DNA of 64,000 nt from an uncultured Planctomycetota bacterium. Lineage in GTDB: Bacteria; Planctomycetota; Planctomycetia; Isosphaerales; Isosphaeraceae. The DNA lies in contig CAWGMQ010000006.1 of the NCBI GenBank assembly GCA_963823665.1, forward strand, positions 512,001 through 576,000, in the 5' to 3' direction. Below are positions 5,401-32,170 of the stretch, one piece after another. The stretch's first letter is position 1; every line of letters begins with the position of its first letter. The notes below the pieces were generated by a model that ran no database searches, was not told the origin of the DNA, and saw only the letters and a list, made by a program, of their open reading frames with translations. The position numbers were made by a program, and so were the translations under genes.

Positions 5401-6543
5401 CAGATCCATGCACAGCCGGTCCAGTTCCTGGGGGACATCCGGAAACAGCGACGCCGGCGAAGCCGGGTCTGTTCGCTGTTTTTCCATGAGGACCTTCAAG
5501 AACTTGCCCTCGTGCGGCAAGCGCCCCGAGAGTGCCCGGTAGAGCATCACACCCACGGCGTACCAGTCAGTTGCCTCATTCACGGGGCAGCCCGCGGCCT
5601 GCTCCGGAGCCATGTAGGCCGCCGTTCCGACGATGTGCCCGTCCGTCGTCTCCGGGTCTGCCCGCGCATCCACGTTCGTGGACAGTCCGAAGTCCAGAAG
5701 GACCAACCGGCCCTGCCGCGTCACCAGCACGTTCGACGGCTTGATGTCCCGGTGCAGCCTCCCCTGCCCATGCAATTCGGCCAGCACCTCGGCCAACTGT
5801 ATGAGTGCCGCCCGAAGGCGCGCGTAGTCCGGGCGCACGGCGGATAGTCGAACCGGCTCAGCCGGCGGGACGAGCGCCACCGGGTCAACCTCCGTGCCCG
5901 GCAGGGGGGATTCGGATTCTGAGCCGCCGACGGTCGACTCGACTGGGGCGGATCCCGCACGCGGCGGGGACGACGCTTCCGGGTCGAATTCGGTCGAGCC
6001 GGGTCGCGAGGCCCCGGGCCCCAGTCGATCGGTCTGATCCAGGCTCGCGTCGAGACCAGCGCCGGTCGCCTCGGTCCGGGCCGGCCGTGGAGCAAACTCG
6101 GCCTCGGTCGGCGGCGGGCACGCGCCGCCTCCCTGCGCCGGCAAATCTTCGGCCGCCGGGTCGCGCTGAGTCAATCGCCCCGCCCCTGGGGCATCCGTCT
6201 GGCCGAGCGTGTCATCCGCCGGACCGCTGGGCTCGGGGCAGACGTACTCGAGAAAATCCACGCCTTCCACCAGCTCCATCGTGAAGAACCACTCGTTCCC
6301 CTCCGAGAAGAGCTCATGAAGCCGCACCAGGCCGGGATGGGTCATGTCCGCCAGCGAGCGGAACTCTCTCTTGAATCGATAGAGCGAGCTGGCATCCAGC
6401 CGGAGGATGGTCTTGAGCGCAACCCGCTCGTTCCGCTCGCTGTCGAATGCCTCGTACACCACTCCCATTCCGCCCGCGCCCAGGCGCCGCCGGATTGTAA
6501 ACCTTTGCGTACCCGTGAATGTGTCGAGTGGGTTCTTGTGCAA
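2485..6543 (-). CDS. Ser/Thr protein kinase fused to AAA_16/STAND-type P-loop ATPase and TPR-like helical repeats
   Basis: LGAGGMGVVY, VALK, HRDIKPSN, DFG, YMAPE; Walker A GRSGVGKS; Walker B LAIDDLQW; GGSPYF; Ala/Arg-rich helical C-terminus. Start codon (TTG) uncertain. Confidence 0.92.
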   Translation of the reverse strand: MHKNPLDTFTGTQRFTIRRRLGAGGMGVVYEAFDSERNERVALKTILRLDASSLYRFKREFRSLADMTHPGLVRLHELFSEGNEWFFTMELVEGVDFLEYVCPEPSGPADDTLGQTDAPGAGRLTQRDPAAEDLPAQGGGACPPPTEAEFAPRPARTEATGAGLDASLDQTDRLGPGASRPGSTEFDPEASSPPRAGSAPVESTVGGSESESPLPGTEVDPVALVPPAEPVRLSAVRPDYARLRAALIQLAEVLAELHGQGRLHRDIKPSNVLVTRQGRLVLLDFGLSTNVDARADPETTDGHIVGTAAYMAPEQAAGCPVNEATDWYAVGVMLYRALSGRLPHEGKFLKVLMEKQRTDPASPASLFPDVPQELDRLCMDLLGRDPRERPSGEEILRRLGGSAGESSRMAALRRLFVGREPQLAALDCAFKDTCQGGTVTVLVHGRSGVGKSSLIQRFLEGLFERDDAVILTGRCYEQESVAYKAVDTLIDALSRYLRRLSRREADALIPRDMSTLAQVFPVLRRVEAVAEAPSRPHTSLDRLELRRRAFAALRELLARIGDRRPLVLAIDDLQWGDLDSALLLSELLRPPDAPVLLLVASYRSEYAALSPFLRIVLQQESDGSAPRDQREVALEPLTLAEGRELALRLIGQDDPAAVALAETIVRESGGSPYFVYELVEYLDEGGELGEGGTLSTQISLDSVLGRRIGRLPAEALALLEILAVAGQPLRQAIACKAADLGNQGFSGLTLLRAQHLIRGTGLGSLDEVETYHDRIRETVVNHLDADRLREVNRRLAAELDQAGGADPETLAVHFEGAGEQSSAGHYYALSADEASEALAFDRAVKLYRRALELGPADPAAARRIRTRLGDALANVGRSVEAARVYQEAAAGSDQLELIELQRRAAYQFLVSGHIDEGLSAFGAILDRVGLSLPRTPRRALLRLLKSRARLRLRGLRFHERAEAEVPREKLELIDISRSVAIGISIVDVIRGADYQTRSLLLALEAGEPSRIALALGWEAVHVACQGRPVWRRTERLVRAATSLADRLGNPHALGMASLSAGAAEFLIGRYRRALEFADRAEAIFRDRCTGVIWELDTTRIFALWSLWSLGRLAELGTRCQEIFHEARERGDRYMLATPGPYVGAFIPLALDDVEGARRFARQALGEWSHQGFHIQHLNFYYGSLYIDSYAGDAAAAWRRIKETERLLQSSLLLRIEQVQADVIQHAGRCAVAMAAVSAGPGPLLRHAEKSARRLDRQQLPWTRAHAQGIRAAVANVRGDTVRAERLLADAVQRFEIADMGLFAASARHHLGQLRGGDTGRAMVEQAEAWMRAQSIVNPSRMASCLVPGFRQA

Positions 6544-6656: not shown

Positions 6657-8969
6657 TCAGCGTACGGGGGCGAAGACGTCCTCCGGCAGCTCGCTGGACG
6701 GGCCGGCGAGGACAGCTTCGGCCTCGGTGGAGAACTGAAGCAGCTCGGCGGCTTTAATCCCATCAAGGTTCTTCGGCTCTCTTTGCCAGCGCGCGGCGCG
6801 ATCCAAGCTCTCGCGGGCCTGGTCGCCATGTCCGAGCCGGTGGTGAGCCATGGCCTGGAATAAGAAGTCGAAGCCGTCGAGCCGGCCGCGGTTGGCAGCG
6901 CGGCTGCGCTCGAGGATGGCAATGGCCTCGGCGTAATGGCCCGCCCGGTACAGGACGACGCCCATCGTGTTGAGGTACGTGCCTTCGCTGGGATGCAGCT
7001 CCACGGCCCGTCGGGCGAGCGCCACCGCGCGGTCAAGATCGCGCCGCGCCACGGGACCGTTGGCCAGCGGCCAGGCAAGGTTGTTGCAGCAAAACGCCAG
7101 CGATTGCCGGAAAACCCACTGCTCGGGTTCGAGGGCCACTGCGGCCTCCAGATCGGCGCTCGCGGGCTGGTACTGCTTCATCCAGCGATAGACCGTACCG
7201 CGCACGGCCCGGTAGTGGGCGTCGTCCGGTCGCAAATGGATCGCTCGCGTCAGGTCGTCGATGGCCTCCGGGTAGCGTAGCAGAGTGGCGTACGCGTGAG
7301 CACGATGATGGAGAGCGTCGGCGTCGTTGGGCTCGTCCATGAGTCGCGCCGTGTACCGCTCGAGCAGGACTGCTCCGCGGTCGTCGAAGTGGCGGTCAAG
7401 CCAGGGAAGGAAGCCGTAGTTGACCCGGAGCGGCGTGAGGAGCGCTAAGGATGCACGGGCCGGGTCAAGGTCGGAGTAGGCCGGCGCGTCCCAGTCGAGG
7501 TGCATGCCGGCGAGTTGCTTGCGGATGGTGCGCAGGTCCCAGACGTGTACGGCCGGACCATCATCGGTGGTCACCACGATCCGCGAGCCGTCGGGGCTGA
7601 AGGCGGCCCAGCCCTGGCACAAATCAGGGCTTTCGAGTCGCGCCAGCGTGCGGCCGGTCTCGGTCTCCACGAGGCGAAATATCTTGCTGTCATCCTGGAC
7701 CACCATCAGCCGCCCGTCGGGGGAGAAATCATAGCCATGACCGCCGATCTGCCTCGCCTCTCGCCAGGTGCCGACTTCCCAGAGCCGGCAGGGCGAATTC
7801 TCCGTCATCAGCCATTTCCCATCAGGGCTGAAGGTGACGCCCCCCGAACCATAATCGAGGGGAAGGTCGGCGACTTTTTGGAAATCGGAGGTCCGCCAGA
7901 CCTGGGCACCGCGACTCTCGATGTGGGTACCGGTCGCCAGCCATTGCCCGTCGGGACTGACGGCGACCCTGCGGCAGTCCACCAGCGGGCCCACACGGGC
8001 TGAGAGTTCGGGAGTCGTGACATAGGCATAGGTGTAGTCGGCCTTGGCCACGATCCGGCCCGACCGGTCCTGCGCGATTCCACAGTATCCCAGCGGCAAG
8101 GCAAGCCCGCGCGGCGGGCCCATGCCGGATTCGCCGCCGTCTGAGTCGAGCCGGATCGGCCACCGATTCACGCCGAGCGCGCCACTGGTGATCAAGTCAC
8201 CGGAGGAATCGAACATCACGTTCCACGTGGTGCCGATCGCCGCGAAGGCAAGCTCGGTGCCACGGGCCAGATCCCATAGCACCACACCCTGATCGGTACC
8301 GACGGCGAGCAGCCGGCCATCATGCCTGATCGTCGGGCGTTGATAGTCCATCTGCCGGCCGGAAATATGAGCGAACGTCCGGTATTCCAGGGCCGGGTCG
8401 ACCTGGTACGTGGTGAGTTTATCCTCGAGCGAAACGACGACCCTCCCATCCCGGCTCATTTCGGGGTTGGATTCGCCGGTCACGGTCAGCCAGTTCCGGC
8501 CCAGGATCGCATCCCACAGCCATAGTCGCCCTTCCCAGCCGTTGCTGATCAGCAGCGTGCCGGCGGGGTGGAAAGCGACGTGCACGCCCTTGGCGCTGTG
8601 GCCTTCCAGGGTCGACGTGCGTATGCCGCCCGCGGCATCCCAGACCATGATCTTTCGATCATCAAACGGGATAGCCAGCGCGGTGCCGTCGGGACTCCAC
8701 GCGACGCCGGCCGGGTTGGGTGGGAGGGCGATGGTGCTGACCTGCCGGCCCGTTTCCGTCTCGAGGATCACGCAGGCGGGGCCGTTTTTTTCGTCATAGA
8801 GGACCGCGATCCGGTTGCCGTCCGGCCGGATAGCGAGGCCCCGTGCCGGTCCGGTCCCTCGGTGCTGCCGGGCGATCCGACGGTTCGCGAGATCGTGGAC
8901 CACCAGCGCTCCATCAGTACGGGCCAGGATCAGCCGCCGGCCATCCGGGGCGAACTGGATCGCTCGCAC
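6657..8969 (-). CDS. WD40 + TPR region: C-terminal part of the frameshifted Ser/Thr kinase gene 6657-11009
   Basis: Repeated FSPDG/WSPDG/WD units, then TPRs (YPEAIDDLTRAIHLRP, YLNTMGVVLYRAG). This frame continues the upstream ORF from about 9005. Confidence 0.88.
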   Translation of the reverse strand: MRAIQFAPDGRRLILARTDGALVVHDLANRRIARQHRGTGPARGLAIRPDGNRIAVLYDEKNGPACVILETETGRQVSTIALPPNPAGVAWSPDGTALAIPFDDRKIMVWDAAGGIRTSTLEGHSAKGVHVAFHPAGTLLISNGWEGRLWLWDAILGRNWLTVTGESNPEMSRDGRVVVSLEDKLTTYQVDPALEYRTFAHISGRQMDYQRPTIRHDGRLLAVGTDQGVVLWDLARGTELAFAAIGTTWNVMFDSSGDLITSGALGVNRWPIRLDSDGGESGMGPPRGLALPLGYCGIAQDRSGRIVAKADYTYAYVTTPELSARVGPLVDCRRVAVSPDGQWLATGTHIESRGAQVWRTSDFQKVADLPLDYGSGGVTFSPDGKWLMTENSPCRLWEVGTWREARQIGGHGYDFSPDGRLMVVQDDSKIFRLVETETGRTLARLESPDLCQGWAAFSPDGSRIVVTTDDGPAVHVWDLRTIRKQLAGMHLDWDAPAYSDLDPARASLALLTPLRVNYGFLPWLDRHFDDRGAVLLERYTARLMDEPNDADALHHRAHAYATLLRYPEAIDDLTRAIHLRPDDAHYRAVRGTVYRWMKQYQPASADLEAAVALEPEQWVFRQSLAFCCNNLAWPLANGPVARRDLDRAVALARRAVELHPSEGTYLNTMGVVLYRAGHYAEAIAILERSRAANRGRLDGFDFLFQAMAHHRLGHGDQARESLDRAARWQREPKNLDGIKAAELLQFSTEAEAVLAGPSSELPEDVFAPVR

Positions 8970-10822
8970 GTACGATATCGGTCCCGGATCATTGAGCGCC
9001 AGGCGCGCCCGTCGATGTCCCGGATCGTTACGGCTCCGCCGGGTTGATGCCCGGCGGCGAGATAACGGCCGTCGGGGCTGAAGCCGTACAGCCTGGCATC
9101 GCGCACGCCCCGGGCCCGGAACTGGTCGATTTCCTGGTCATCGAGAGCGCGGCGGACCGAGATCGCTCCATCGCGGAACCGCAGGGCGTACCGCGTCATG
9201 GTCGGATCGAAGCTGGTCGCAATGACGTCTCGGGGCCGGTGGATGACCCTGCCGGCCGGCTTGAGATCCGGCAGCGCCAGTGCGGCAATCGCCAGGTCGC
9301 GTAGCGAATCGCGCCGCGCGGCCGATCCCGTCCCCGGGGGAAGGCCCTCGAGCAGATTCGCGGCCTGGCTCACGGCCTTGAGGGTCTCGAATCGCTGGCC
9401 TTGCCGGCGGCTGAACAGCCCGTTTCGGGCTTGCGCCGTGTAGGCGTCGACCGCTCGCCACTCAGCATTCAGAGCCACGTCGTCCGAGCGGGCGCGCTCG
9501 AGCCTGAGCGCCTCGGCCTGGTTCCGAAAGACGATGGCCGCAGCCATCGCCGCGGCGGCCAGGACGATCATCAAGAGCGCCGCGGCGATGTTGGCGCCGG
9601 CCAGCCAGGGCTCGCGCCTGCACCAGCGCCAGAACCGCTCGACGGACGACACCGGCCGCGAGCGGATCGGCCGCCCTTCGACGAACCTCCGCAGCTCACT
9701 GGCCAGCTCGCCGGCCGAGCCGAACCGGTCAGCCCTGTCTTTGGCGATGGCCTTCAGGACGATCGTCTCCAGGTCGCGCGGGATGTTTCCTTCGAGCTGC
9801 CGCGGCGGCGGTGGCGGGTCATTGCGGATGCGCTCGATCAGCCGGATCTGGTCGGTCTCCTCGAACGGCGGCCGCAGCGCCAGCAGCTCATACAGCGTCG
9901 CGCCGAGAGAATAGACATCGCCTCGACGTTCCGACGTTCCCCGGAATCGCTCCGGCGCCATGTAGCGGAGCGTCCCGACCAGCTCGCGCGATTGCGAGGG
10001 GTCGGTGCTCTCCTCGAGTTTCGCCAGGCCGAAGTCGGTGACCCATATGTTGCCCATTGCGTCCAGAAGCAGATTCGACGGCTTGATGTCGCGATGCAGC
10101 ACGCCGCGACGGTGGGCGTACTCCAGGGCGTCGGCCACCTGCACGCCGAGTCTGGCGATCTCGCGGTAGTATCGCAGCTCACGCAAGCCGCCCAGCGATG
10201 ATGATTCGAGCGTCGACGGCTGACGGCCATCGCACTCTTCCAGCCCTGGCTCCCGATCGCCCGCGCGCATCGCATCGGCAGCCGGAGCCTCCTCGCCGCC
10301 GGCGGTGCTCGCGGTGGTCGTGAGATCCGGGTCCGTCGCCGCGGCGACGCGACCGGTCAACAGTCCTCTCGCGGCGGCCGTGGCCGGGATGGTGATGATC
10401 CCATCGGGGACGATGAGACTCTCGGCGTGCGTGTCGTCTTCACGCAGATGACGGATGTCGGCCAGGACACGGTCCAGGGGCTGACCCTCGATGAACTGCA
10501 TGGCGTAATAGCAGACCCCATCCTGTTCGCCGTAATCGAAGACGCCGACGATATTGGTATGGTGCAGCCCGGCCGCCAGGCGGGCCTCGGCGTGGAACCG
10601 CCGCGAGTATTTCGAGTCGGCCCGGAACCGCGGCTGCATGACCTTGAGCGCGACCCGGTTCTTGAGCGATTCGTGCTCGGCCTCGTACACGACGCCCATT
10701 CCCCCGCCGCCGACCCGGCGGCGGATGAGGTAGTCACCGAGTCGTTCCGGCGACGGGCTAGCGTCTCCGGATTCGCTCGCGAACGTGCTGTATCTCGAGG
10801 GTGGTGTGAGGCTGCCGCTCAA
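8930..10822 (-). CDS. Membrane Ser/Thr protein kinase catalytic domain + TM helix (middle part of gene 6657-11009)
   Basis: VGGGGMGVVY, HRDIKPSN, DFGLAK, YMAPE, RDLETIVLK, RWCRR and then a hydrophobic helix. Confidence 0.92.
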   Translation of the reverse strand: MSGSLTPPSRYSTFASESGDASPSPERLGDYLIRRRVGGGGMGVVYEAEHESLKNRVALKVMQPRFRADSKYSRRFHAEARLAAGLHHTNIVGVFDYGEQDGVCYYAMQFIEGQPLDRVLADIRHLREDDTHAESLIVPDGIITIPATAAARGLLTGRVAAATDPDLTTTASTAGGEEAPAADAMRAGDREPGLEECDGRQPSTLESSSLGGLRELRYYREIARLGVQVADALEYAHRRGVLHRDIKPSNLLLDAMGNIWVTDFGLAKLEESTDPSQSRELVGTLRYMAPERFRGTSERRGDVYSLGATLYELLALRPPFEETDQIRLIERIRNDPPPPPRQLEGNIPRDLETIVLKAIAKDRADRFGSAGELASELRRFVEGRPIRSRPVSSVERFWRWCRREPWLAGANIAAALLMIVLAAAAMAAAIVFRNQAEALRLERARSDDVALNAEWRAVDAYTAQARNGLFSRRQGQRFETLKAVSQAANLLEGLPPGTGSAARRDSLRDLAIAALALPDLKPAGRVIHRPRDVIATSFDPTMTRYALRFRDGAISVRRALDDQEIDQFRARGVRDARLYGFSPDGRYLAAGHQPGGAVTIRDIDGRAWRSMIRDRYRTCERSSSPRMAGG

Positions 10823-11009
10823 AGTCGCCGAGCTGCTCCAGCTCGACCAGCGCCGGAATCAACTCGCGAATCCGTGCGGCCAGCTCCGGGTGGCGTGCCA
10901 TCAGCTCGGTCAGTGCCGGCCGTTCTCCACGACGGAACCGGTCCAGAAACGACTCGACGACCGGTCCCAGGGGATCGTCGTCCGGCGGTTCCATCGATCC
11001 GCCATTCAT
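10758..11009 (-). CDS. N-terminal segment of the ECF-coupled kinase (frameshift near 10822)
   Basis: ATG at 11009 overlaps the ECF stop (ATGA) and has a GGAGG RBS. It encodes ESFLDRFRRGERP..HPELAARIRELIP, an N-terminal module I recognise from planctomycete kinases downstream of ECF sigmas. Confidence 0.8.
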   Translation of the reverse strand: MNGGSMEPPDDDPLGPVVESFLDRFRRGERPALTELMARHPELAARIRELIPALVELEQLGDFERQPHTTLEIQHVRERIRRR

Positions 11010-11638
11010 GACCATTCCTCCTTCGGCCCGTCCGGCAAGACGGAGAGAATGTCCTTGAGGCGTCCCAGGGCCCGCAGGTAGCGCTTGGTAGCCGCCGACT
11101 CGCCTAGCCCGAGCACCCGCGCGCACTCGCCGTTGGTGAGCTGCTCGAAGTGGCGCAGGACCAGGACTTCGCGGTCGATCGCTTCCATGCGCTCGAGCAC
11201 TTCCAGCAAACGTCGCTTGCGCTCGGCCCGGATGGCCACGTCGCTCGCCCGGGTGTCGCGGCCCAGAAGCTGGGCCGCGAGTGCCGCCGAGCTCGCCGCG
11301 GGAACCGTCGCGGTGTTGATCGAAACGTCACGACCGGCATCTCGCGATTTCGCTCCGAGCTGCTGGCGGTGCACGATCTGCAACCGCTGGAGCGTGAGGA
11401 ACCTGAGCCACAAGAACGGCGGCATCCGATCAGACTGGTCTGTGTATTCCGGTCGCCGCTCCGTGGCCTCAAGGAATGCCTCCTGGATCACGTCCGAAGG
11501 GTCGATGCGGCCGCGCAGCCGCTGGTCCAGCCGCAGCGCGACCATCCGCCGCAGGCGCTTGCGGTGCGCCGATAGAAACTGACCCCACCTGGCGCGGTCC
11601 TCGCCCCTGGAGTCGCCTGCGGCATCGTTCGTGTCCAT
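11006..11638 (-). CDS. RNA polymerase sigma-70 factor, ECF subfamily (planctomycete kinase-associated type)
   Basis: Sigma2 LRRMVALRLD..RIDPSDVIQEAF..FLWLR and sigma4 DREVLVLRHFEQLTNGECARVLGL..KRYLRAL. Likely start ATG 11638; the ORF track extends to 11716. Confidence 0.93.
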   Translation of the reverse strand: MDTNDAAGDSRGEDRARWGQFLSAHRKRLRRMVALRLDQRLRGRIDPSDVIQEAFLEATERRPEYTDQSDRMPPFLWLRFLTLQRLQIVHRQQLGAKSRDAGRDVSINTATVPAASSAALAAQLLGRDTRASDVAIRAERKRRLLEVLERMEAIDREVLVLRHFEQLTNGECARVLGLGESAATKRYLRALGRLKDILSVLPDGPKEEWS

Positions 11639-11648
11639 GATGGTTAAG

Positions 11649-11675
11649 ACTGCGCGCGGACACCGATTCGGGACA
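11649..11675 (-). promoter_or_regulatory. Putative ECF-dependent autoregulatory promoter TGTCCCG-N13-GCGCAGT
   Basis: Minus strand reads ttttttct-TGTCCCG-aatcggtgtccgc-GCGCAGT-cttaaccatc-ATG. The same motif and spacing recur at 15212-15238. Confidence 0.65.
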
Positions 11676-11740
11676 AGAAAAAAGCCGCATGAGCATTTTC
11701 TCAACAATATTATCAAATTGCGACCTGAATCTCGCTTGCT

Positions 11741-11768
11741 TGTCTGGCTTCGGTTCTCTCTCAGCAGT
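11741..11768 (+). promoter_or_regulatory. Degenerate copy of the same promoter motif (TGTC-N19-GCAGT) upstream of the divergent kinase
   Basis: TGTCtggcttcggttctctctcaGCAGT; the spacer is 1 nt longer than in the other two copies. Confidence 0.35.
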
Positions 11769-11836
11769 ATGCTCTAGCGCGACCGCGCTTCGGCCGGCGG
11801 AGCGAGGGACATTCACCCGCGGCGTGGAGCATCGCC

Positions 11837-13210
11837 ATGAACGAACAACTCGAGCCCGGCCTGTCGCTGCCAACGGAACCGAACGAAACCGTCGACGTGA
11901 TCCCGGACGATCGAACCACACCGCCCACCGAAGAAATGCCGCCGGAGGGGCCGAAATCTCGCGAGCCGCGCGGCGCACGAATCGGGCCGAACCTGCCGGG
12001 CTACGAGATCCTCGAGGTGATCGGCCGTGGCGGCATGGGGGTCGTGTACAAGGCACTGCATACGCGCCTCGACCGCCTGGTCGCTTTGAAGATGGTGCTG
12101 GCCGGTGCCCACGCCTCGCCCGAGGAGCTCGCGCGGTTCTCCATTGAATCGCAGGCTGTCGCGCAGCTCCAGCATCCGGGGATCGTCCAGATCTACGAGG
12201 TGGGCGAGCATGATGGCCTGCCGTATTTCTCGCTCGAGTTTGTCTCCGGCGGCAGCCTCGCGCACAAGATCGGCGGAAAGCCGCAGCCGACGCGCGAGGC
12301 CGCGGGGATGGTGCACGAGCTCGCCCTGGCCGTTCGCGAGGCGCACCGGCGCAACATCATCCACCGCGACCTGAAGCCGGCCAACGTGCTCCTGACCCCG
12401 GACGGACGGCCCAAGATCACCGACTTCGGCCTGGCCAAGCGATTGGACTCCGACTCGGAACAGACCCACACCGGTGCGATCATGGGGTCGCCAAGCTACA
12501 TGGCCCCCGAGCAGGCCTGGGGCCAGACCCACGAGATCGGACCCCGCACCGACGTGTACGCCCTGGGCGCGATCCTCTACGAGATGCTCGTCGGCCGCCC
12601 GCCGTTTCAGGGTGCCTCGCCGATCGAGACCATCGAGCTGGTCCGGACCGAGGAACCGGTGCCTCCAACCCGCTTGCAGCCGAAGATTCCCGTCGACCTC
12701 GAAACAATCTGCCTGAAATGCCTGCAGAAAGATCCTGCCAGGCGGTATTCCGACGCGAATTCACTTGCCGAAGACTTGCAACGATTCCTTGAGGACAGGC
12801 CGATTCTGGCACGTCCCGTGGGGACCGCCGAGCGACTGGCACGATGGTGCCGCCGCAACCCGAAGGTCGCCCGGCTCACCGCGACGGTCGCCGGGCTCCT
12901 GGTCCTGGTCGCCGCCGTGATGACCTACGCCGCCGTTTCGCTCAACCGGGCGAATGGACAGCTCGAGGCATCGATTAAAACCGAGTCGGCCGCGCGGAAG
13001 GCGGCCGAGACTAGCGAGCACGCCGCGCTCAAGGCGCGTGACGACGAGGCCGTTGCGCAAGGCAGAGAGCGAGGCGAGAGCGAAAGCCGAGAAGCTCGTC
13101 GCGGTCGCCCTGCTGCTGAACAGGAACGCACTGAATTCCACGCGGACCATCAGCGTCTTGACCCTCAAGCGGCTTCGCGATTTCCCGGGCAGCCAGGATC
13201 TGCGGGATGA
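11837..13210 (+). CDS. Membrane Ser/Thr protein kinase, N-terminal part (frameshift near 13055)
   Basis: IGRGGMGVVY, HRDLKPAN, DFGLAK, YMAPE, DLETICLKCLQKDP, RWCRRNP and a TM helix; GGAG RBS. Confidence 0.93.
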   Translation: MNEQLEPGLSLPTEPNETVDVIPDDRTTPPTEEMPPEGPKSREPRGARIGPNLPGYEILEVIGRGGMGVVYKALHTRLDRLVALKMVLAGAHASPEELARFSIESQAVAQLQHPGIVQIYEVGEHDGLPYFSLEFVSGGSLAHKIGGKPQPTREAAGMVHELALAVREAHRRNIIHRDLKPANVLLTPDGRPKITDFGLAKRLDSDSEQTHTGAIMGSPSYMAPEQAWGQTHEIGPRTDVYALGAILYEMLVGRPPFQGASPIETIELVRTEEPVPPTRLQPKIPVDLETICLKCLQKDPARRYSDANSLAEDLQRFLEDRPILARPVGTAERLARWCRRNPKVARLTATVAGLLVLVAAVMTYAAVSLNRANGQLEASIKTESAARKAAETSEHAALKARDDEAVAQGRERGESESREARRGRPAAEQERTEFHADHQRLDPQAASRFPGQPGSAG

Positions 13211-14525
13211 GCTGGTCAGGACGTCGGTGAAAGAACTGCACGCCAACATGGAAGGCATGGACCAGCTCGGAGCCGTCGGCGCCCACGACAAGGAGGCGGC
13301 GGCGACAGCCACCCGGACGCTCGCCGGGATCTACCAGCAGGCGGCAGGACTGATGGATGATTTCGGACGCTACGACGAGGCCATGCGGTATCTTCGCCAG
13401 ATGGACGACCTGGCCGAATCGCTGGCAGCGAGCAATCCCGGACAGATCCAGGCCAAAAGGCTCCTGGCGATCAGCAAGCTCACGATCGGCCAGTTCGAGA
13501 TGAACCGGTTCGGCGACTCGAAGGCCGCGCTCAAACACCTTCAGCAAAACCTGGAGCTCCGCCGGGAGTACCTGGCAGCCAAACCGGGAGACGACCCGGC
13601 CAAGGATGGGGTCTGCAACGCGCTCGGTGAGCTCGCGCGGGTCTGGTTGAAGCTGGGGAATCCCGGCAAGGCGAGCTCCTACTACAAGGAGGAGATCAAG
13701 CTGCGTGGTGAGATCGGGGTGAAGCTGGCCGGGCAAATCGAATTCCGCCGTCAAGGCGCCGGCCTCGAGGAGAAGCTCGGCGACCTGTCTGTCGAGCTTG
13801 GCGACCAAAGCTCCGCCAAGGACCATTACGACCGCGCGCTCGAGCTCCGCGAAGAGATCGCCAGGCAAAACCCCGGCCACGACCAGGCACAGCGCGACGT
13901 GTTGCTGTCGTTTAACAAGCTCGGCACATTCTACCTGCTCCACCGCAAAAACCCGGCCACGGCCCGGGACTTCTCCGAAAAGGCGCTCGACGGGTTCGTG
14001 CAGCGGCTCAGTGCCGAGCCGGCGAGCGTCGGGGCCAAGCAAGACCTCGCCGCGACCCATTACTTCGTGGGGACCGCCGCCCTCCGCGCAGGCGACCGCA
14101 TGGCCGCCGATCGTCACTACAGCGAATACCGAACGATCTGCGAAGGGCTCGCCGGCAACCCGAAGGCGGAGCTGATCATTCGCGACCTGATGATTGCCCG
14201 CGCGCGCTGCGGCGAGCACAAGATCGCGTCCCAGACCGCAGAGGAACAGATCAAGTCACCCCCGCTCGACGTGCGGGTCTATTACTATGCCGCCTGCGCT
14301 TTCTCCCTCTGCGCCGGCGCCGTGGCCGAGGAGCCGGCCTCGCCGGAGACGCAGGCTCTTGCCAGAAGTTATACCGAGAGCGCCTTCAAGTCGCTTCGCC
14401 TGGCCCTCAAGGCCGGCTGGGAGGGCGTGGTCGACGTCGAGACCGACCCCGATCTCGACGCGATCCGCAACGCCCCCGGGTTCAATGCCATCGTCGCAGA
14501 GTTCCGCAAGGCCGCCGGCAAGTGA
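12954..14525 (+). CDS. TPR region: C-terminal part of kinase gene 11837-14525
   Basis: TPR-like helices and a terminal YYAACAFSLC..LRLALKAGW..ETDPDLDAIR motif. Becomes the coding frame from about 13055. Confidence 0.85.
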   Translation: MDSSRHRLKPSRPRGRRPRLASTPRSRRVTTRPLRKAESEARAKAEKLVAVALLLNRNALNSTRTISVLTLKRLRDFPGSQDLRDELVRTSVKELHANMEGMDQLGAVGAHDKEAAATATRTLAGIYQQAAGLMDDFGRYDEAMRYLRQMDDLAESLAASNPGQIQAKRLLAISKLTIGQFEMNRFGDSKAALKHLQQNLELRREYLAAKPGDDPAKDGVCNALGELARVWLKLGNPGKASSYYKEEIKLRGEIGVKLAGQIEFRRQGAGLEEKLGDLSVELGDQSSAKDHYDRALELREEIARQNPGHDQAQRDVLLSFNKLGTFYLLHRKNPATARDFSEKALDGFVQRLSAEPASVGAKQDLAATHYFVGTAALRAGDRMAADRHYSEYRTICEGLAGNPKAELIIRDLMIARARCGEHKIASQTAEEQIKSPPLDVRVYYYAACAFSLCAGAVAEEPASPETQALARSYTESAFKSLRLALKAGWEGVVDVETDPDLDAIRNAPGFNAIVAEFRKAAGK

Positions 14526-15211
14526 CGGCCCACGTTGAGTTCATTCCGGCTTAATCATGCCGTTTCGTGACGTTTTGAAGCTTGCATTTTTATTTCCGTC
14601 GACTTGAAATCTTGAGCGGCAAAACGTAGACTCGCACTTGTTTTGCACACGTAACGATACTTTTCTTACGTCGTCTTCGTTGTTCCGGCTGATATCCAAC
14701 GCTGTCACCGGTAGAACAACGTTCTCTTCTTTTATACCTCGGGGCCAAGGCGGCCACGAATTTCGACCGACCTGGATCGTGCCGGTTGCGAGCCGGGCTT
14801 GCCTCTTTGCCGGATCGCGGCCGTGTGATCGATATCGTCAAACGGATTGCGTCGGACAGAGTCGCGTCCGCCGCGCTCTTCAGAGAACCGGTCCCGGCGT
14901 CTGACCAGGGACCGATCGTCGTCGAGGAACTGGGCGGGGCTCAGGGAACTGATGAGCCGCGTCTCGGGTGCGAAGTCACAGAATCGCTGATGCGATGTCA
15001 CAATCGCACGCGAAACGGACATTGACCTCCAGGTAAGGCGGCCAGCAGGAAATAGATTACCGGGGATCGAAGCTTAAAGTAGCTGCGTTCTGCCACGAAA
15101 GGCAAGCACCCGGAAAAAGCGATTTTCTGGTGTACGGAGTATTCCGCCGCGCGGTTAAGAGTTCGTGGGATTGTTTCACGGAATGTCTTCCGAGGGAATT
15201 TCGATTTTTCG

Positions 15212-15238
15212 TGTCCCGGCAGTACCCCTTTGCGCAGT
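15212..15238 (+). promoter_or_regulatory. Putative ECF-dependent promoter of the giant gene, TGTCCCG-N13-GCGCAGT
   Basis: tttttcg-TGTCCCG-gcagtaccccttt-GCGCAGT, ending 113 nt before ATG 15352. Both 7-mers and the spacing match the copy upstream of the ECF gene. Confidence 0.65.
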
Positions 15239-15351
15239 TCTAGCAGTACACAGTACTCCCGATCGGAACAGCAACGAGACTGAACAAGAGATCATTGACG
15301 TCGAGATTGCATCGTGGTTTTACCTCTCCTCTCGAAGCAGAAGGTTGTACG

Positions 15352-18300
15352 ATGTCGACACCTCATGACCAGGGCGCCAGCGCGTTCCACGACGACGACC
15401 GCCGCGGACGCAGGATGAACCGGCGGCGGCGTGACGCCGCGAAGCGGAAGAAACGGAGCCCGTTCAAGCCGTTCTTCCACACCCTGGAAAAGCGAATGAT
15501 GCTGGCGACGTTTCTGGTCAGCACCGCGGCCGACTCGGGCGCCGGCTCGCTGCGGCAGGCGATCCTGAACTCGAACGCCGCACCAGGGTCGAACACGATC
15601 GACTTCGGCATCGGCACGGGCGCCCAGACGATCTCGCTGTTGTCGGCCCTGCCGAACATCACCGTCCCGGTCCTGATCGACGGCACGACGCAGCCGGGAT
15701 ACACCACCGCTCCGCTGATCGATCTCGACGGCACGGGCGCGGGCAGCAGTGCGAGCGGGCTGGATCTTGCCGCCGGCTCCGGCGGCAGCACGATCCGCGC
15801 CCTCGTGATCGATAACTTCGCGGCCGACGGGATCGTGATCACGACGACCGGCAACATCGTCCAGAGATCCTATATCGGTACCAACGCCGCGGGCACCGCT
15901 GTGGGCAGCCAGGCGATGACCTACGGTATTGTCGACACGGCCGGGAGCAACAACACGATCGGCGGTACGACGGCGGGCGCGGGCAACCTGATCTCGGGCA
16001 ACTCCGAGGGCATTCTCCTTCAGAACGCCCTCGCTTCGGACAACCTGGTCGTGGGCAACCTGATCGGCACCGACATTACGGGCAAGGTCGCGCTGCCAAA
16101 CTTGCAGGGTGTTGGTGTGTTCGGCGCGCCCGGCAACACGATCGGCGGTACGACCTCTGGCGCGGCCAATTTGGTCTCCGGCAACAGCAACTTCGGAGTC
16201 GTTATCTCAGGTGGGCAGAGCACCGGTAACATCATCGCGGGTAACAAGATCGGTACCGACATCACAGGCACCCTCGCGCTATCCGATAGCCACGGTGTCG
16301 AAATCGCCAACGGGGCGACCAACAACACGGTCGGCGGCCTGACTGGAACCCCCGGTACCGGGGCGGGTAACCTCATCTCGGGCAACACCGCCGCCGGCGT
16401 TTACATGGGCATGGAGTCGGGTAACGTCGTTGCCGGCAACCTGATCGGCACCGACATCACCGGCGCCCACGCGCTGTCGAACGACTTCGGAGTGTATTTC
16501 GATATCGACACCACGAACAACACGGTCGGCGGTACGGCCGCGGGCGCGGGCAACCTGATCTCGGGCAACGTCGACGGAATCGACAACGCTACGACCGATG
16601 TCATCGCCGGCAACAAGATCGGCACCGACATCACCGGTACCGTCGCGCTGCCGAACACGACGTTTGGCGTGATTTTGGTCTCGAACAGCACGATCGGCGG
16701 TACGGCCGCGGGCGCGGGCAACCTGATCTCAGGCAATAAGACCGGAATCCTGGCCTTCGGCGGCGCCAACTTGATTGAAGGCAATCTCGTCGGTACCAAC
16801 GCGACCGGGCTGACCGCCCTCGGTAACACCCAGGACGGGATCGACGTCAAATCTTCGGCCGAAACCATCGGCGGTACGGCCGCCGGCGCGGGCAATACGA
16901 TCGCGTTCAATACCGACGACGCAGTCAACGTGATTACCGGCACCGGAGACGCGATCCTCGAAAACTTGATCTACAGGAACGGCTCGGGCATCGTCCTCGC
17001 CTCGGGCGCAAACAACAATCAGATCGCCCCGGTCATCACCGGTGTCACGTCGGAGGCTACGGCAGCGACCGCCTCCCAGACGAGCATCTCGGTGGATCTG
17101 ACCGCGGCGGGGTTCACATCCGGCTCAACTTATTCGCTCGACTTTTTCGCGAGCGGTTTGGGTGATCCCTCGAGCGGGGTCCAGGCCCACGTCTACCTGG
17201 GAACCCAGACATTCACGGGGGGTGCCACGGGTAACGTCATGTTCACGTTGCCCATGCCGCTGTTGTCGGCAACCGAGACGGTCACGGCGACGGCGACGCT
17301 CCTGGCTGGGTCGACGTTCACCGATACCTCGAGTTCTGCCACGGCCGCCGCGGTCGCCGAGATTTCCAACATCACAGTCACCACGACGGCCGCAACCGGC
17401 GTTGGCTCTCTCGAACAGGCGATCCTGGACGCCAATGCCGACACCACCCTTCCCATGCCCTACACGATCACGTTCGCGATCACGCCCGGGAGCGCTCCCT
17501 TTACGATCACCCTGCCATCAGGCGGGTTGACTTCGCTCACACGCTCCGTCGCGCTCGACGCGACCAGCCAATCGGGCTACACCGGCTCGCCGATCATCGT
17601 GTTGAACGGGACCGGGGTTTCGGGAAGCGGGCTGGTCCTGAGCACTGGGTCCGACGGCAGCCTGGTCAGGGGATTCGACATTATCGATTTCACTCGCTTG
17701 GGCATGGACGGTATTGACATCGATTCAAGCGGCAATGCCGTGCAGGCCAGCTACGTGGGCGTGCAAACAGGCGGAAGTACTTCGGCCGAGGACAAAGATG
17801 GCGTATTGATCAACGGCTCGAACAACACGATCGGCGGTACGACGCCACATGCGGGCAATCTGATTTCTGGCAACAACAACCCCGCCGGCACCACCGAAGG
17901 CATCGGCGTCGAGATCAACGGCTCGAGCGCGACCGGCAATACGGTCGAAGGCAACCTGATCGGCACCGACATTACGGGCATCCTCGACCTGCCCAATTAC
18001 ATCGGCGTATACATCGCTACCAGCGCCTCGGGCAACACCATTGGCGGCAGCACGGCGGCCGCCCGCAACGTCATCAGTGGCAACACTGTCGACGGCGTCT
18101 TCGTGGACCTTGCCGGCGGTAATCTGATCGAGGGCAACCTGATCGGCACCGACGTGACCGGGTCCGTCGCGCTGGGCAACCTGGGTGACGGCGTCGAGCT
18201 CCAAGGCTCCAACAACGATACCGTCGGCGGCACCACCGCCGCGGCCCGCAACGTCATCAGCGCCAGCGGCCAGTTCAACCTGTACATCGTCTACTCCGCC

Positions 18301-21300
18301 GACGAGACCGTCCAGGGGAACTACATCGGTACAGACGCGACCGGCACCTTTGCCCTGGACACCGACACTTTCACCGGCATCGAGGTCCTCAGCAGCTCCG
18401 ACAACCTGATCGGCGGGACCGCGCCGGGTGCCGGCAACGTCATCTCCGGCACCGCCTATGGCGGCATTATTGTCAGCGACTATTATGGCGGGGGTCAAAA
18501 CCCACAGGTCACGGATGGCAACACAATCCAGGGCAACTTGATCGGACTGAATGCCAGCGGCACGGCCGCTCTCCCTAATGGCTCTGACGGCATTTTTGTC
18601 GGCAACTCTCTAGACACTCAGATCGGCGGCCTGGCGCCGGGGGCTGGCAACGTGATTGCAGGCAGCCAGGCGGTCAGTGTTGGCCCGGGTTATGACTATC
18701 CTGCTGGAAGCAACGGGGATGGCATCCTCGTGCAAGGTTCCGCGCCGGGCATCGCCATCGAGGACAACCGCATTGGCACCGATCTGACTGGCACGGATGC
18801 CCTGCCCAACCAGGGCAGCGGCGTGTACGTAGCGAACACCACGGCCACGATCAGCGGCAACCAGATCGCCGGCAACGGCTACGACGGAATTACCGTCCAG
18901 GGTAGCGGCGCGCCCAACGGCCTGACGGGCTTGTGGTCGGCGGACGGCACCACCTTCGACAGCCAAGAGGACACCGACGGCACTTTGCTCGGCGGCGCGA
19001 CCTACGCCCCGGGAATCTCAGGGCAGGCCTTTTCCTTCGACGGCACGAGCGGTGCCTTCGAGGACAACTCCAATTTTTCGCCGCCGGGCGGCCGGATCCA
19101 GTACCCTTTCGGCGCCACCATGGCGGCCTGGATCAACACCACGGCGGCAAGCGGAACGCTGATGACGGACGGCGGTGGCATTGACACTCAGAGCGGCATG
19201 GGCCTGTTCCTGCAGAACGGCCACCTCGAAGCGATTGGCAGCAAGGGCACCGCCGGCCAGTTCAACTTTGACTTGACCAGCGCGGTGACGGTCAACGACG
19301 GTCAGTGGCACCTGGTCGCCGTCACCTGGGACGGAACCACCTCCGCCGGCGGCGTAACGTTGTACATCGACGGCGCCCAGGTGGCCACCGGCACGGCGCT
19401 AGCGACTCTCGGCAACCTCGGCACCGGCAACGACGGCGCCAGCTCGCTGCTGTATTTCGGCGGCGACCCCAACCTCGCGCTGCCCTATTACAAGGGCTTG
19501 ATGGACGAGGTGGCCGTCTACAGCTCAGCGGTCAGCGCGGCCGACATGGCCACGATGTACAGCGTCCGCGGCGTCGCCGAGTCCGCGAGCGCCGCCACGA
19601 TTACCGGCAACCAGATCGGTACGAACGCGTCCGGCACTGCCGCGCTCGCCAATAGCAACGACGGCATCGATCTCGTCGGCTCCAGCTTCAACGTGGTCGG
19701 CGGCACGACGCCTGCTGCGGCCAACCTGATCTCCGGCAACACGACCGTTGGTATTCAGATCACGGGCGCGGGCGCAACGACCAACGTCGTCGAGGGTAAC
19801 CTGATCGGCACCGGCATCACGGGGACGGTGGCGATTGCCAACGCCACGGGCGTCGAGATCGATACCGGCGCCTCGGGCAACACGATCGGCGGCCTGACCG
19901 CGACGCCCGGCACCGGCGCAGGCAACGTCATCTCGGGCAACATGAACAACGGCGTCGAGATCGACGGCACCGCCACGACCGGCAATGTCGTCGCGGGCAA
20001 CCTGATCGGCACCGACTCAACCGGCACGGTAGCAATCGCCAACGCCACGGGCGTCCAGATCGATACCGGCGCCTCCGGCAACACGATCGGCGGCTCGTCG
20101 GCCCTCTCGCGCAACGTCATCAGCGGAAACACGGGCGACGGAGTTTTTATCACCGAGACCGCGACCGGCAATGCAGTCGAAGGCGACTACATCGGCACCG
20201 ACGTCACGGGCACCCTCGCCCTGCCCAATTTCAACGGCGTCTTGATCGATACCGGCGCCTCCGGCAACACGATCGGCGGCTCGTCGGCCCTGACGCGCAA
20301 CATCATCAGCGGAAACTCGGACGACGGCGTTGTTATCGACGCGACCGGGACTGGCAACAACCTGGTCGCGGGCAATTACATCGGCCTGGGGCCCGACGGG
20401 ACGACGGCCGTCGGCAACGCCTTGGAAGGCGTCTTTGTCGTCAACTCCGGGACCGGCAACACGATCGGCGGCCTCACGTCGACCCCGGGCACGGGGCTCG
20501 GTAACGTCATCGGGAACCAGTTGTCATTTTACAACAGCTACGGGATCGCGCTCCAAGGCAACGCGGCTGTCTCGGTGCTCGGCAACGTCATCGGCCTCAA
20601 CGCGGCGGGGAACGCCGCGCCGAACACCTCCGGCGTCCGGGTGTTCGGGTCGAGCGGCAACGTCATCGGAGGCGGACTCGCCGGCTCGGCCAACGTCCTC
20701 TCGGGAAATGCGGATTACGGGATACTCCTGACCAACGGCTCGGCCTTCAACCTCGTCCAAGGGAATTTGATCGGCACCGACGCGACGGGTACCGTCGAAC
20801 GGAGTAACGGGGGCAGCGGGGTCTATTTGACCACTGGTTCGAACAACAATGTCATCGGCACGAACGGCGATGGCGTCAACGACGCGACCGAGGGAAACGT
20901 CATCGCCGGCACGGCCTATAGCCTCGTAAACCTCGACAGCGTCGGGACGAATAATAACGTGATTGCGGGCAATGCCATCGGCACCGACCGGACCGGTACA
21001 CTGGCAATGGGAGGGACGATCGGCATCCAGGTCAACGCCGGAGTCCAGAACACGCGGATTGGGACCAACGCCGACGGCGTGAGCGACATCGCCGAGAGGA
21101 ACCTGATCAATGGCAATATCTACGGCGTCCAGATCACCGGAACCGGCGCGACCGGCAACACGGTCGCGGGCAACTACATCGGCGTAGCCGCCGACGGCGT
21201 GACGGCGCGGGGGAATACGAGCTATGGCGTCTTGATCCAGGGTGGCGCAACGGGCAACACGATCGGCGGGCTGACGAGCACGCCCGGCACCGAGGCGGGG

Positions 21301-24300
21301 AACGTCATCTCGGGGAATACCGGCGCAGGAATCACCATCAGCGATACCGGTACGTCCGGTAATGCGGTCGAAGGCAACCTCATCGGCACGAAGGCCGGCG
21401 GCACCTCAGCACTGGCGAACAGTACCGACGGGGTGCTGATCCAGACCAACGCCTCGAGCAATACGATCGGCGGCACCGCGGCCGGCGCGGGCAACGTCAT
21501 CTCGGGCGACACGACCAACGGCGTGGAAATCACGGGAACGGGAACATCGAGTAACGTCGTCGAGGGTGACTACATCGGCACCGACTTGACGGGCACGGTG
21601 GCGATCGCCAATGCCACGGGCGTCGAGATCGATACCAGCGCCTCGGGCAACACGATCGGCGGCAGCGCCGCGGCTGCGCGCAATATCATTTCCGGGAACT
21701 CGTACGGGGTCACTCTGAATGACACAACGAGCGACGCTGTCGAGGGTAACTTTATCGGCACGGACCTGACGGGTTCAATCGCCGTTGCGAATGGCATCGG
21801 CGTTCTGATCTGGGCCAGCGCCACGGGCAACACCATTGGCGGGCCCGCCACGATGACCGGCACCGCACCGGGTAATGTGATTTCAGGCAATTCGGGACCG
21901 GGCATTTTCTTCGACAACAACGTTGCCAGCACCGGTGACCTGGTTGAAGGAAACCTGATCGGCACCAATGCCGCCGGCACGGCGGCGCTGGGCAACGGCG
22001 TCGGAAACGGCGGCATTTACATCCTGAGCGATGGCAGCGCCACGCATGAAACGATCGGCGGCACGGCGGCCGCCGACCGCAATGTGATCAGTGGCAACAA
22101 TGGCGCGGGCATCGACATCCTGAACGACAACAGCAACCTGATCGAGGGCAACTACGTCGGCCTCGACATCACGGGCGCGTCGGCGGTACCGAATCTGGAC
22201 CAAGGCATTCAAATCGTCGGGTCGAACGATAATACCGTCGGCGGCACGGCGCCCGGCGCCGGCAATGTCATCAGCGGAAACCGGTACAACGCCACTGCGG
22301 GCCAGCAAGTGGTGATCAACGACGAAAACTTGGCGACGCAAACCGCTTCAGGCAACCTCGTTCAAGGGAATTTGATAGGAACGAATGCGGCTGATACCGG
22401 TCTGCCGTCGGGAATGAGCTTCGACTACGACGGGACCGGTGTGGAAATCCTCGGCTGTGCCACCGGCAATACCATCGGCGGGACGACAGCGGGGGCCGCC
22501 AACGTGATCGCCGGCAATGCCACGGGCGTCTTTATTGGCTCCGTGGGATTTCTGGCTGGAGGTACAACTTCCGGCAACGTCGTCGAGGGGAACGATATTG
22601 GCGTCGAGGCGAATGGAACCACCGCACTGGCCAACACGGTGGGCGTCTTGATCCAGTCGGGCGCGGGCAATTCCTTGACCGACGACAACACCTTGGGCGG
22701 AGCCACGGCCGTGGCCGCGAACATCATCAGCGGCAATACCACATTTGGAATCGAAATCTCCGGCAGCACCGCGACCGGGAATGTCGTCGAGGGTGACTAC
22801 ATCGGCACCGACCTGACGGGCACTGTGGCGATTGCCAATGGAACGGGCGTCGAAATCGATACGAGCGCCACGGGCAATACGATCGGTGGTCTCACGAGCA
22901 CCGCCGGCACCGGCGCGGGCAACGTCATCTCGGGTAATAGCAACTACGGTGTCTGGGTCGTCGCCGCAACTTCGAACGCCATCGAAGGCAACCTGATCGG
23001 CACCGGCGCCACGGGTACGGTCGCGGTCGCCAATGGGCTTTTCGGAGTCAATGCCGATACGGGGGCCAATAACACGACCGTCGGTGGGACCGTCGCCGGC
23101 GCGGGCAATGTGATCAGCGGCAACACGAGCTACGGGGTCGTAATCAACTCGTCCGGCAGCCTCGTCGCCGGCAACCTTATCGGGTTGAATCGCGCCGGGA
23201 CCACGGCGGTGGCGAACCTGTCGAGCGGGATCAAGCTTGTCGGGGCGAACAACACCGTCGGCGGTATCACCGCCGTTGCCCGCAACGTCGTTAGTGGCAA
23301 CACGCAGAATGGGATCTTGGTCACGGGCGTCGGGGCGACGGGGAACCTGATCGAGGGGAACTACGTCGGTACCAATGCCGTCGGCAGCGCTGCCGTTCCC
23401 AACAATTCCGTCGCCTCGTACCGGGGCATCCTCATCAACTCCGGGGCCCAAAACACCACAGTCGGCGGCAGCACCGCCGGCGCGGGCAATCTCCTGTCGG
23501 GGAACCTCGGTTGGGGTCTTGAAGTCGACGGCCCAGTGACCGCCAACACGGTGATCCAGGGCAACCTGATCGGTACCGACGCCACCGGAACCTTCGCCGT
23601 CGGGAACGGCTTCAGCGGCGGTATCATCATTTACCGTGCGATTAGTACGACGATCGGTGGGACGACCGCAGCCGCGCGAAACCTCGTCTCGGGCAACCAA
23701 TCCGCCGGAATCCTTGCTGAAGGAACGGGCTTGTCCCAGTTGCTCATCGAGGGCAATTACATCGGTACCAACTCCGCCGGCAGCGCCGCGATCCCCAACA
23801 ACGACACCGGGGTGTACGTCGAGGATCTGGCGGCGAACGTGACGATCGGAAGTGCCGTGGCGGGCGGGGGCAACCTCATCAGCGGTAACGGTTACTGCGG
23901 GATCTATGTGACAAATCAAGATGGTGTCGGAGTCGCGACGAACGTCGTCATTCAGAACAACTCGATCGGCACCAACGCTTCTGGCACCGGCGCTATACCG
24001 AACCTCGCGGGCGCCGTCGGAGGAACCGGCGTGTACGCTGGTTCCGGGGTCATTATCTACAACGTGCCGAACGTCGTCGTTGGCGGATCTTCTGCCAACA
24101 CTCGCAACCTTATCTCAGGCAACGCGGCATACGGAGTCGCGATCTCCGGCTCCGCCTCCACGGGGAACCAGATTTTCGGCAATTTCATTGGCTCAGACGT
24201 CTCAGGCACTGTGTCGCTCGGTAACGCGACCGGCGTCATCATCCAAAGTGGAGCGACAAGCGACACCATCGGCGGCACGGCCGTCGGCGCGGGCAACCTG

Positions 24301-32042: not shown

Positions 32043-32170
32043 CGACTCCGATCGAGCTGGTCGGCAGCACCGGCGGAACGAACACCCTGATCGGCGGCGC
32101 CGGCGACGACACGCTCGTCAGCGTCCGGGGGAATGATTACCTCGAAGGGACAACGGGCAACACCGACTTC

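Follow-up and report, generated by a model that had tools for sequence, protein, structure and literature searches.

The stretch of DNA analysed here (the window) comprises 64,000 nucleotides of an uncultured Planctomycetota bacterium, G000:C6:512001-576000 of a source genome (G000) of 16,460,759 bases, to which all whole-genome figures refer. It carries a gene for an extracytoplasmic function (ECF) sigma factor, followed by the gene of a membrane-bound kinase, and, on the opposite strand, the gene of a giant secreted protein; the bipartite motif TGTCCCG-N13-GCGCAGT stands in front of both the ECF gene and the giant gene. Orthologous sequences were taken from a genome of the same genus (G001), which has the same gene order at this locus. 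The principal features are the following, with promoter scores from a matrix trained without the window:

11006..11638, minus strand: ECF sigma factor of 210 amino acids, ECF59-like, with the Pfam domain Sigma70_r4_2
6657..11009, minus strand: kinase 1, with a helical head, a Ser/Thr kinase domain, one membrane helix, and WD40 and TPR repeats
11649..11675, minus strand: proposed self-promoter of the ECF gene, 36.4 bits, boxes unchanged in G001
11678..11683, minus strand: T-tract 5' of the ECF -35 box; T is enriched at -7 to -3 in 90 family sites
15212..15238, plus strand: proposed target promoter of the giant gene, 26.9 bits, boxes unchanged in G001
15352..42868, plus strand: giant secreted protein of ~9,170 amino acids, reading frame broken near 24500 and 32000

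A sequence-only reading of this DNA had proposed that the two motif copies are target promoters of the ECF, with its own gene and the giant gene as outputs. Both copies were verified, at 11675-11649 on the minus strand and at 15212-15238 on the plus strand, with identical 7+7 flanks, equal 13-nt spacing and differing spacers, each copy being preceded by a T-tract (11683-11678 and 15205-15209). The self-promoter comprises the -35 element TGTCCCG (11675-11669), a 17-nt spacer with a conserved GCGC at its end, and the -10 core AGT (11651-11649); the T-tract before its -35 box may be UP-element-like. Two exact matches were found in none of 100 window shuffles, and the genome-wide scan returned 2 exact matches, both in the window (0 for the reversed control). 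A 7+7 word shared between the two upstream regions, with a spacer of 10-20, appeared in 9 of 1500 shuffles in a look-elsewhere test. The rarity does not extend to loosened versions, for which a genome scan had also been proposed: with 1 mismatch there are 9 matches in the genome vs. 10 in the control, and the 2-mismatch motif is at background (at least 2 matches in 36 of 100 window shuffles). In the genome-wide pattern searches from which regulon size was estimated, only the two window sites and a pair at G000:C4 exceed 21 bits; a site at C10:579405 reaches 20.2 bits, with neither an ECF nor a signal-motif gene found within 10 kb. Comparison with G001 shows that all 28 box bases are unchanged and that 7 of the 26 spacer bases have changed (p ~ 0.004, calculated by hand), 5 of 13 at the self-promoter and 2 of 13 at the giant-gene site.

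The source genome holds 78 matches to the sigma factor, ~30 of them with at least 40% identity, and together with relatives these gave a family set of 149 distinct genes. The upstream regions of these related ECFs, whose comparison had likewise been suggested, yield a site scoring more than 9 bits for 103 of the 149 genes vs. 10 of 745 shuffles (fitted matrix), and one spacer length is common to 90 of the 103 sites; the family thus shows the bipartite motif at fixed spacing before sigma genes by which autoregulatory ECF promoters are recognised, and the 17 bp between TGTCCCG and AGT fall within the 16-18 bp of -35/-10 spacers. Because the family matrix was fitted on the same set, the window was rescanned with a matrix lacking the window and its G001 ortholog; trained on 101 sites, this matrix ranks the two window sites first and second in 64 kb with the scores given above, the best of 30 local shuffles reaching 20.1 bits. 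The family consensus is TTTCC-TGTCCCSRA-N11-GCGCAGTTWW, and TGTCCCG-N13-GCGCAGT is one variant of a promoter common to kinase-linked ECF59-like sigma factors of planctomycetes, not unique to the window ECF. High-scoring copies of the window variant also occur at three places with no ECF within ~10 kb (L451 in G087:C1, and L452 and L453 in G084), and these are possible targets in trans.

Covariation between sigma residues and promoter bases was calculated for 120 genes; besides the 103 above the threshold, these comprise 17 loci with lower scores that were included manually, and the effective number is 37. In the -35 box, the leading pairs couple K185 to base 4 (K with C in 77 cases, N with G or T in 27) and E180 to bases 6-7; in the -10 element, R61 is paired with the G, I88 with the A, and Q87 and Q84 with the following bases; the top ten pairs include one cross-domain pair, G192 with a -10 base. 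That the motif lies at a constant distance ahead of 103 of the 149 family genes and covaries with recognition residues of sigma-4 and sigma-2 speaks for its being the self-promoter, as had been proposed. In alignments with the RpoE family, K185, I88, Q84 and R61 are equivalent to S172, N84, N80 and A60; according to the data seen from PMC7776599, S172 reads -34/-33, N84 reads -13/-12, N80 and A60 read -11, and the consensus at -36 to -30 is TGTAACC. The residue equivalences and the RpoE assignments therefore place TGTCCCG at -36 to -30 and AGT at -13 to -11, with a spacer of 17 bp. The -35/-10 geometry first suggested is refined in that GCGCAGT is no plain -10 hexamer, only its AGT being at -13 to -11. 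A -10 hexamer GCGCAG (C-13 G-12 C-11 A-10) was tried and dropped, because the A and T with which I88 and Q84 covary lie farther downstream and the ATGs are concentrated 9-11 nt past the T. Judged by these residues and bases, the window ECF probably reads the motif.

The ECF ATG at 11638 lies 10 nt past the motif, and the intervening DNA contains no purine-rich ribosome site, in agreement with the sequence-only reading. With the register from the reading residues, the predicted +1 of the ECF gene is 11638, the A of the ATG. An ATG follows 8-12 nt downstream of 73 of the 103 family sites, and in 65 of these cases the base before it is a pyrimidine; a further 22 sites show a pyrimidine-purine step at roughly that position, with a G-rich ribosome site after it; the ATG positions and pyrimidine-purine steps therefore fit a start 9-11 nt past the motif. 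The suggestion of a nearly leaderless ECF transcript is thereby supported, and the mRNA is probably fully leaderless; the start placed near 11642 gives way to 11638. For the giant gene, the predicted +1 is 15248-15250, which would leave a leader of ~104 nt, and a ribosome-site-like AGAAGG lies at 15339-15344. Upstream of the ECF -35 box, an AT-rich stretch (11686-11722, ~38 bp identical in G001) contains the imperfect inverted repeat CAAT-ATTATCAA-ATTG and is a possible binding site or divergent promoter. An Rfam scan of 10800-16000 gave no match. A search for RNA data covering 10800-16200 found none, and contigs from four DNA runs, aligned to 6500-26000, were uninformative on start sites.

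That the giant gene is an output of the ECF is supported by matched second sites before neighbouring secreted-protein genes across the family. We scanned 115 loci of at least 8 kb (18 names admitted by hand) with each sigma factor's own self-promoter as the template. A second site of at least 20 bits was present in 22 of the 115 loci vs. 17 of 2875 with swapped and 0 of 115 with reversed templates; these second sites lie mostly directly after the sigma-kinase operon or divergent from it, and precede genes of secreted proteins or further kinases. In an annotation-based test the target was picked by its N-terminal motif, and 39 of 114 loci have such a target. In 18 of these 39 loci no template outscored the own one; the mean was 13.3 bits vs. 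7.3 off-diagonal, and 0 of 20000 permutations reached the observed mean, which also holds for the 14 loci of the source genome alone. Matched variants within that genome are TGTCCCA/G..GCGCAGAT (L041), TGTGGAC..GCGCGGTT (L049), TGTYTAC..GCGCGGTT (L057) and TGTCCGT..GCGCAGGT (L056). At L043 and L266 a second matched site precedes an orphan kinase that starts with the same helical head, which suggests one sigma factor with two receptor kinases.

The giant protein had been described as an adhesin/protease, and its domains fit that description: an Arg-rich planctomycete-type N-terminal motif, beta-helix repeats, laminin G, PKD, Ig-like domains, RTX nonapeptide repeats, and a C-terminal sedolisin-like (S53) protease domain at ~41333-42283 (E = 1.4e-16). 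Within the gene lies an array of 84-bp RTX-type repeats (32391-34020, with staggered matches to G001), where Pfam recognises 21 nonapeptide stretches. The first 400 amino acids of the protein have 252 matches in the source genome, on at least 8 contigs; the other giant-type N-termini examined there lack the window motif and have differing upstream motifs.

Two properties of the cassette bear on how the sigma factor may be controlled, the first being a serine in the sigma factor and the second the head of kinase 1, the gene whose start overlaps the ECF stop and whose frame is broken in the assembly near 10825 and 8930-8969:

10827..11009, minus strand: kinase 1 head, conserved, of three helices, lacking a Cys/His zinc motif; predicted binder of the sigma-4 recognition helix

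The DAED motif reads DPSD in the window ECF, and 109 of 120 relatives carry Ser at position 48. As far as the consulted text of PMC8103513 goes, ECF59 members are thought to regain charge through serine phosphorylation; outside ECF43, acidic residues are retained and the mechanism may be another one, according to the portion seen of PMC8999054. Inactivity without phosphorylation is less certain for the window ECF because two aspartates are kept in DPSD. The 54-residue head is the N-terminus of the kinase directly after 133 of the 149 sigma genes, and its consensus has no conserved Cys/His motif. A fold model of the head shows three helices (predicted local distance difference test, pLDDT, 84.7); neither sequence searches of Pfam, NCBIfam and the PDB nor a fold comparison of a 56-residue helical model gave a significant match. 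The predicted complex of head and sigma factor scored 0.70 vs. 0.08 for the best of 3 controls; of 157 solved complexes, 116 attain the mark applied to this score, as do 2 of 215 mismatched pairs; for the alignments used, these counts are valid only approximately. At least 83% of contacts agreed between runs, the pLDDT of the partners was at least 83, and head residues 7-14 are placed on sigma residues 184-188 in the sigma-4 recognition helix; the modelled head fragment ends at the kinase 1 frame break. By this model, the kinase 1 head is predicted to cover the -35-reading helix in the manner of an anti-sigma factor.

The region upstream of the giant gene contains a further family-type site:

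15129..15155, plus strand: second family-type promoter, GGTGTAC-N13-GCGCGGT, 21.0 bits, 83 bp upstream of the 15212 site

Its score was reached in 1 of 2000 shuffles of 14526-15200. The pattern KGTBTAC-N13-GCRCGGWT, composed after its three sites had been seen, has 3 matches in the source genome: the 15129 site and two at the C10:1207122 paralog, one as its self-promoter and one before its neighbour. In G001 the -10 part is kept and the -35 box differs at 2 of 7 bases. Tandem family sites occur in 2 of 71 upstream regions, those of the window giant gene and its ortholog; a giant-gene homolog of another genus (G064:C27) also has two tandem family sites, neither of which matches the self-promoter that was read by eye before the adjacent ECF. 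It is conceivable that the 15129 site functions, and we lean mildly towards its not doing so. A second paralog, at G000:C8:1374377, has the residues R61, Q84, Q87, I88, E180, S181, T184 and K185 and both boxes as in the window ECF and, by this identity, could cross-read the window site. Both paralogs carry frameshifts in the assembly, and the spacer of the C8 self-promoter lacks 2 nt, which may be assembly errors. A one-mismatch motif copy at G000:C8:1374622 (L008, L040) stands before another kinase gene, divergent from the closest intact-box paralog. Farther upstream of the giant gene, 14976-15022 (plus strand) holds TGTCACA-N13-CGGACAT and the inverted repeat ATCGC-N4-GCGAT, partly deleted in G001; this element is 87% conserved upstream of L329, a close metagenomic giant-gene homolog without the main motif, and is possibly the promoter of another ECF family.

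We consider it likely that the motif is a promoter read by the ECF encoded at 11638-11006 and that the locus works as a local signalling cassette. In the resting state, two things would restrain the sigma factor: the kinase 1 head lying over the -35-reading helix, and Ser48 in the place of an acidic residue with which other ECFs bind core polymerase. A signal reaching the WD40/TPR part of kinase 1 in the periplasm would release the sigma factor and, by analogy with EcfP/PknT, the same signal would probably lead to phosphorylation of Ser48. The freed sigma factor would transcribe the leaderless mRNA of its own gene and of kinase 1, giving positive feedback, and would transcribe the giant surface protein gene from about 15248-15250. 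More tentatively, dozens of such sigma/kinase cassettes in soil planctomycetes may be insulated from one another by a residue-to-base code, each with a zinc-free anti-sigma head and a phospho-serine as a double lock on one receptor kinase, a leaderless mRNA, and a neighbouring giant exoprotein that is switched on; some giant genes, including that of the window, may stack variant promoters and so combine the signals of distant cassettes.

Several results weigh against the assignment of the two sites to the window ECF. Across 121 family genomes the exact pattern has 27 matches vs. 23 for the reversed control; the 27 comprise 10 ECF self-promoters, 7 sites at cassette neighbours, 1 before a giant homolog, and 9 that are unexplained, lying at neither an ECF cassette nor a giant homolog. 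The local template is not the best fit for 21 of the 39 annotated neighbours, including those of the relatives L227 and L103 (79% and 78% identical). The window's own template, flanks included, matches only 14 of 19 positions at the 15212 site (11.8 bits); that site has a better fit to two other templates, and 20 of the 25 swapped templates found a match of as good a score somewhere in the window locus. Among 44 other homologs of the giant N-terminus, 43 have no family site. The DNA upstream of the giant gene is more than 90% identical in the sole ortholog, and box conservation at 15212 says little because of this high overall conservation. In an independent-pairs test on a tree built without the tested columns, 2 to 6 pairs were available and none of the tests listed was significant: the residue and base changed in the same way vs. 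opposite ways in 2.9 vs. 0.0 cases for R61-G, 3.3 vs. 0.0 for I88-A, 0.8 vs. 0.0 for K185-C and 0.8 vs. 0.5 for E180, and in 0.1-1.0 vs. 0.1-0.2 cases for three cross-domain controls among those listed. Finally, the score of the predicted complex may reflect likeness to solved sigma/anti-sigma pairs.

It is possible, if doubtful, that the motif is a real family promoter and that the giant gene is driven mainly or jointly in trans, by the C8:1374377 paralog and, through the 15129 site, by the C10:1207122 paralog. The C8 paralog shares all eight recognition residues and both boxes, two of the three 15129-type sites lie at the C10 paralog and its neighbour, and the tandem sites of the G064:C27 homolog are unlike the self-promoter of the ECF beside them; however, matched sites cluster beside their own cassettes, both paralogs are frameshifted and the C8 self-promoter is short in its spacer (perhaps by assembly error), the 15129 -35 box is not kept intact in the ortholog, and tandem sites are confined to the 2 of 71 upstream regions. 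We regard it as improbable that only the ECF self-promoter is real and that the giant-gene copy is an unused relic or a chance match. The weak conservation test at 15212, the lack of a site at most homologs of the giant N-terminus, and the different upstream element kept by L329 instead would agree with a relic, but the look-elsewhere test, the rank of 15212 as the second-best site in 64 kb, and the recurrence of this arrangement with this variant in other genera (e.g., L228, L229, L230, L242 and L306) argue for a site in use. It is very improbable that another transcription factor or sigma factor binds the motif and co-regulates both genes, with covariation by shared ancestry: kin do share residues and promoters alike and the independent-pairs test is not significant, but covariation is strongest in domain-specific pairs at positions known for reading, the variants of paralogs and of their neighbours match inside a single genome, the fixed ATG distance fits a start site, and the sole sigma-70-like match in 11500-15500 (14604-14632) lies in a stretch missing from the ortholog.

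ECF autoregulation with a nearby target is textbook knowledge, and the preferred reading, a promoter read by the ECF of its own cassette, makes the locus a circuit of a known kind, a local autoregulatory ECF with a kinase receptor, in a variant that is well-supported and new. The best NCBIfam model for the ECF is TIGR02984 (Sig-70_plancto1) at 152.7 bits, under its cut-off of 183.75, and the protein is best filed as ECF59-like. ECF59, ECF62, ECF61 and ECF217 are the planctomycete kinase-associated groups in the examined text of Casas-Pastor et al. 2021 (PMC7826278), which mentions 'a conserved TC in -35' for ECF59 with neither the full motif nor targets named, calls the motifs of ECF61, ECF62 and ECF217 not conserved, and describes kinase-related groups as typically without an anti-sigma factor. 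Like the ECF59-type groups of that text, the window has a planctomycete ECF with a longer linker (insertions are present vs. RpoE-family chains) and, at +1, the gene of a kinase that has one membrane helix and TPR or WD40 repeats; TGTCCCG fits the TC in -35, and a serine lies in the DAED-equivalent (DPSD). In the window family, unlike in the description there, the bipartite motif is complete, targets match it, and the kinase head is anti-sigma-like. Kinase 1 resembles the kinases of ECF62 in its WD40 repeats and single membrane helix and, unlike those of ECF62 subgroups 1-3, has no N-terminal zinc finger.

An ECF beside a membrane Ser/Thr kinase is also found in EcfP/PknT of Vibrio parahaemolyticus and EcfK/PknS of Xanthomonas citri, of group ECF43 (PMC8999054, PMC8103513, as seen in part). 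The ECF43 pairs, so far as these sources describe them, share with the window a DAED altered to a phosphorylatable residue and envelope or secretion genes as output, and differ in threonine (STTA) vs. serine (DPSD), in promoter and in phylum; phosphorylation in the window ECF is a prediction. The locus further resembles the local autoregulatory ECFs of Todor et al. 2020 (PMC7776599, parts seen), which have a self-promoter and few nearby targets, a TGT start at -36 and a 17-nt spacer, and the equivalents of S172, N84 and N80 would read -33, -13 and -11 as in the RpoE code given there. In contrast to that code, covariation at -31/-30 in the window family falls on E180 (the V167 equivalent), not on R171 (Thr here), and, in contrast to the promoters shown there, GCGC is conserved before the -10 core. 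Planctomycetes are not mentioned in the main text or 8 supplement files of PMC7776599. In class I anti-sigma domains (RseA, RskA, RsiW), helix 1 lies against the side of sigma-4 that reads DNA, the first three helices make up one unit and zinc is optional, according to the portion seen of PMC7406223; in the model, helix 1 of the kinase head is placed on the same face. Unlike these domains, the head is part of a kinase, and it gave no clear sequence or fold match to them. This kinase architecture is covered in PMC11032199, whose main text, as seen, does not mention promoters. A literature search found no paper giving TGTCCCG-N13-GCGCAGT, its scope excluding Tables S1-S5 of PMC7826278, which possibly hold motif logos, and the family promoter consensus is probably new.

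For the kinase-linked planctomycete ECF groups, the texts examined describe neither a promoter consensus nor targets. The consensus and the residue code make regulon prediction feasible for the ~30 paralogs of the source genome, and the code ties these paralogs to the giant secreted proteins of the phylum. Two questions become testable, namely whether serine phosphorylation is needed and whether anti-sigma domains are hidden in the heads of kinases in 'anti-sigma-free' groups, and the matched sigma/promoter pairs are candidate orthogonal switches.

The remaining genes of the locus are:

2485..6543, minus strand: kinase 3, after kinase 1, with Ser/Thr kinase and AAA-ATPase domains and no clear membrane helix
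11837..14525, plus strand: kinase 2, a divergent Ser/Thr kinase of the membrane that has TPR repeats; reading frame broken near 13030-13060
42987..45029, plus strand: separate downstream gene with its own N-terminal motif and no family promoter in front

The matrix scan of the window found no family promoter in front of kinase 2; a hexamer TATGCT in 11765-11780 (plus strand), conserved in G001 and ~65 nt before the kinase 2 start, is a candidate -10 element for this gene. The assignment of 42819-45029 to the giant gene was dropped, as this region has its own start and its own N-terminal motif. Several genes of the locus are frameshifted in both assemblies: the breaks in the giant gene are two single-base indels relative to G001, which has many breaks of its own, and kinase 2 is broken near the same place in both genomes at different bases. 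The frame breaks are probably assembly errors rather than pseudogenisation. The closest named relatives of the sigma factor are from Planctomycetota, several being labelled Isosphaeraceae, which is probably the family of the source organism as well. Between kinase 2 and the giant gene, 14526-14960 is ~430 bp of lower-GC DNA that is missing from G001 and in part resembles two other places in the source genome. Beyond the downstream gene, 45667-52405 contains a histidine-utilisation-like cluster (amidohydrolases, an aromatic amino-acid lyase, N-formylglutamate amidohydrolase and urocanase), and 54702-59473 (minus strand) contains a row of MoxR-type AAA ATPase, DUF5682 and VWA_CoxE genes.

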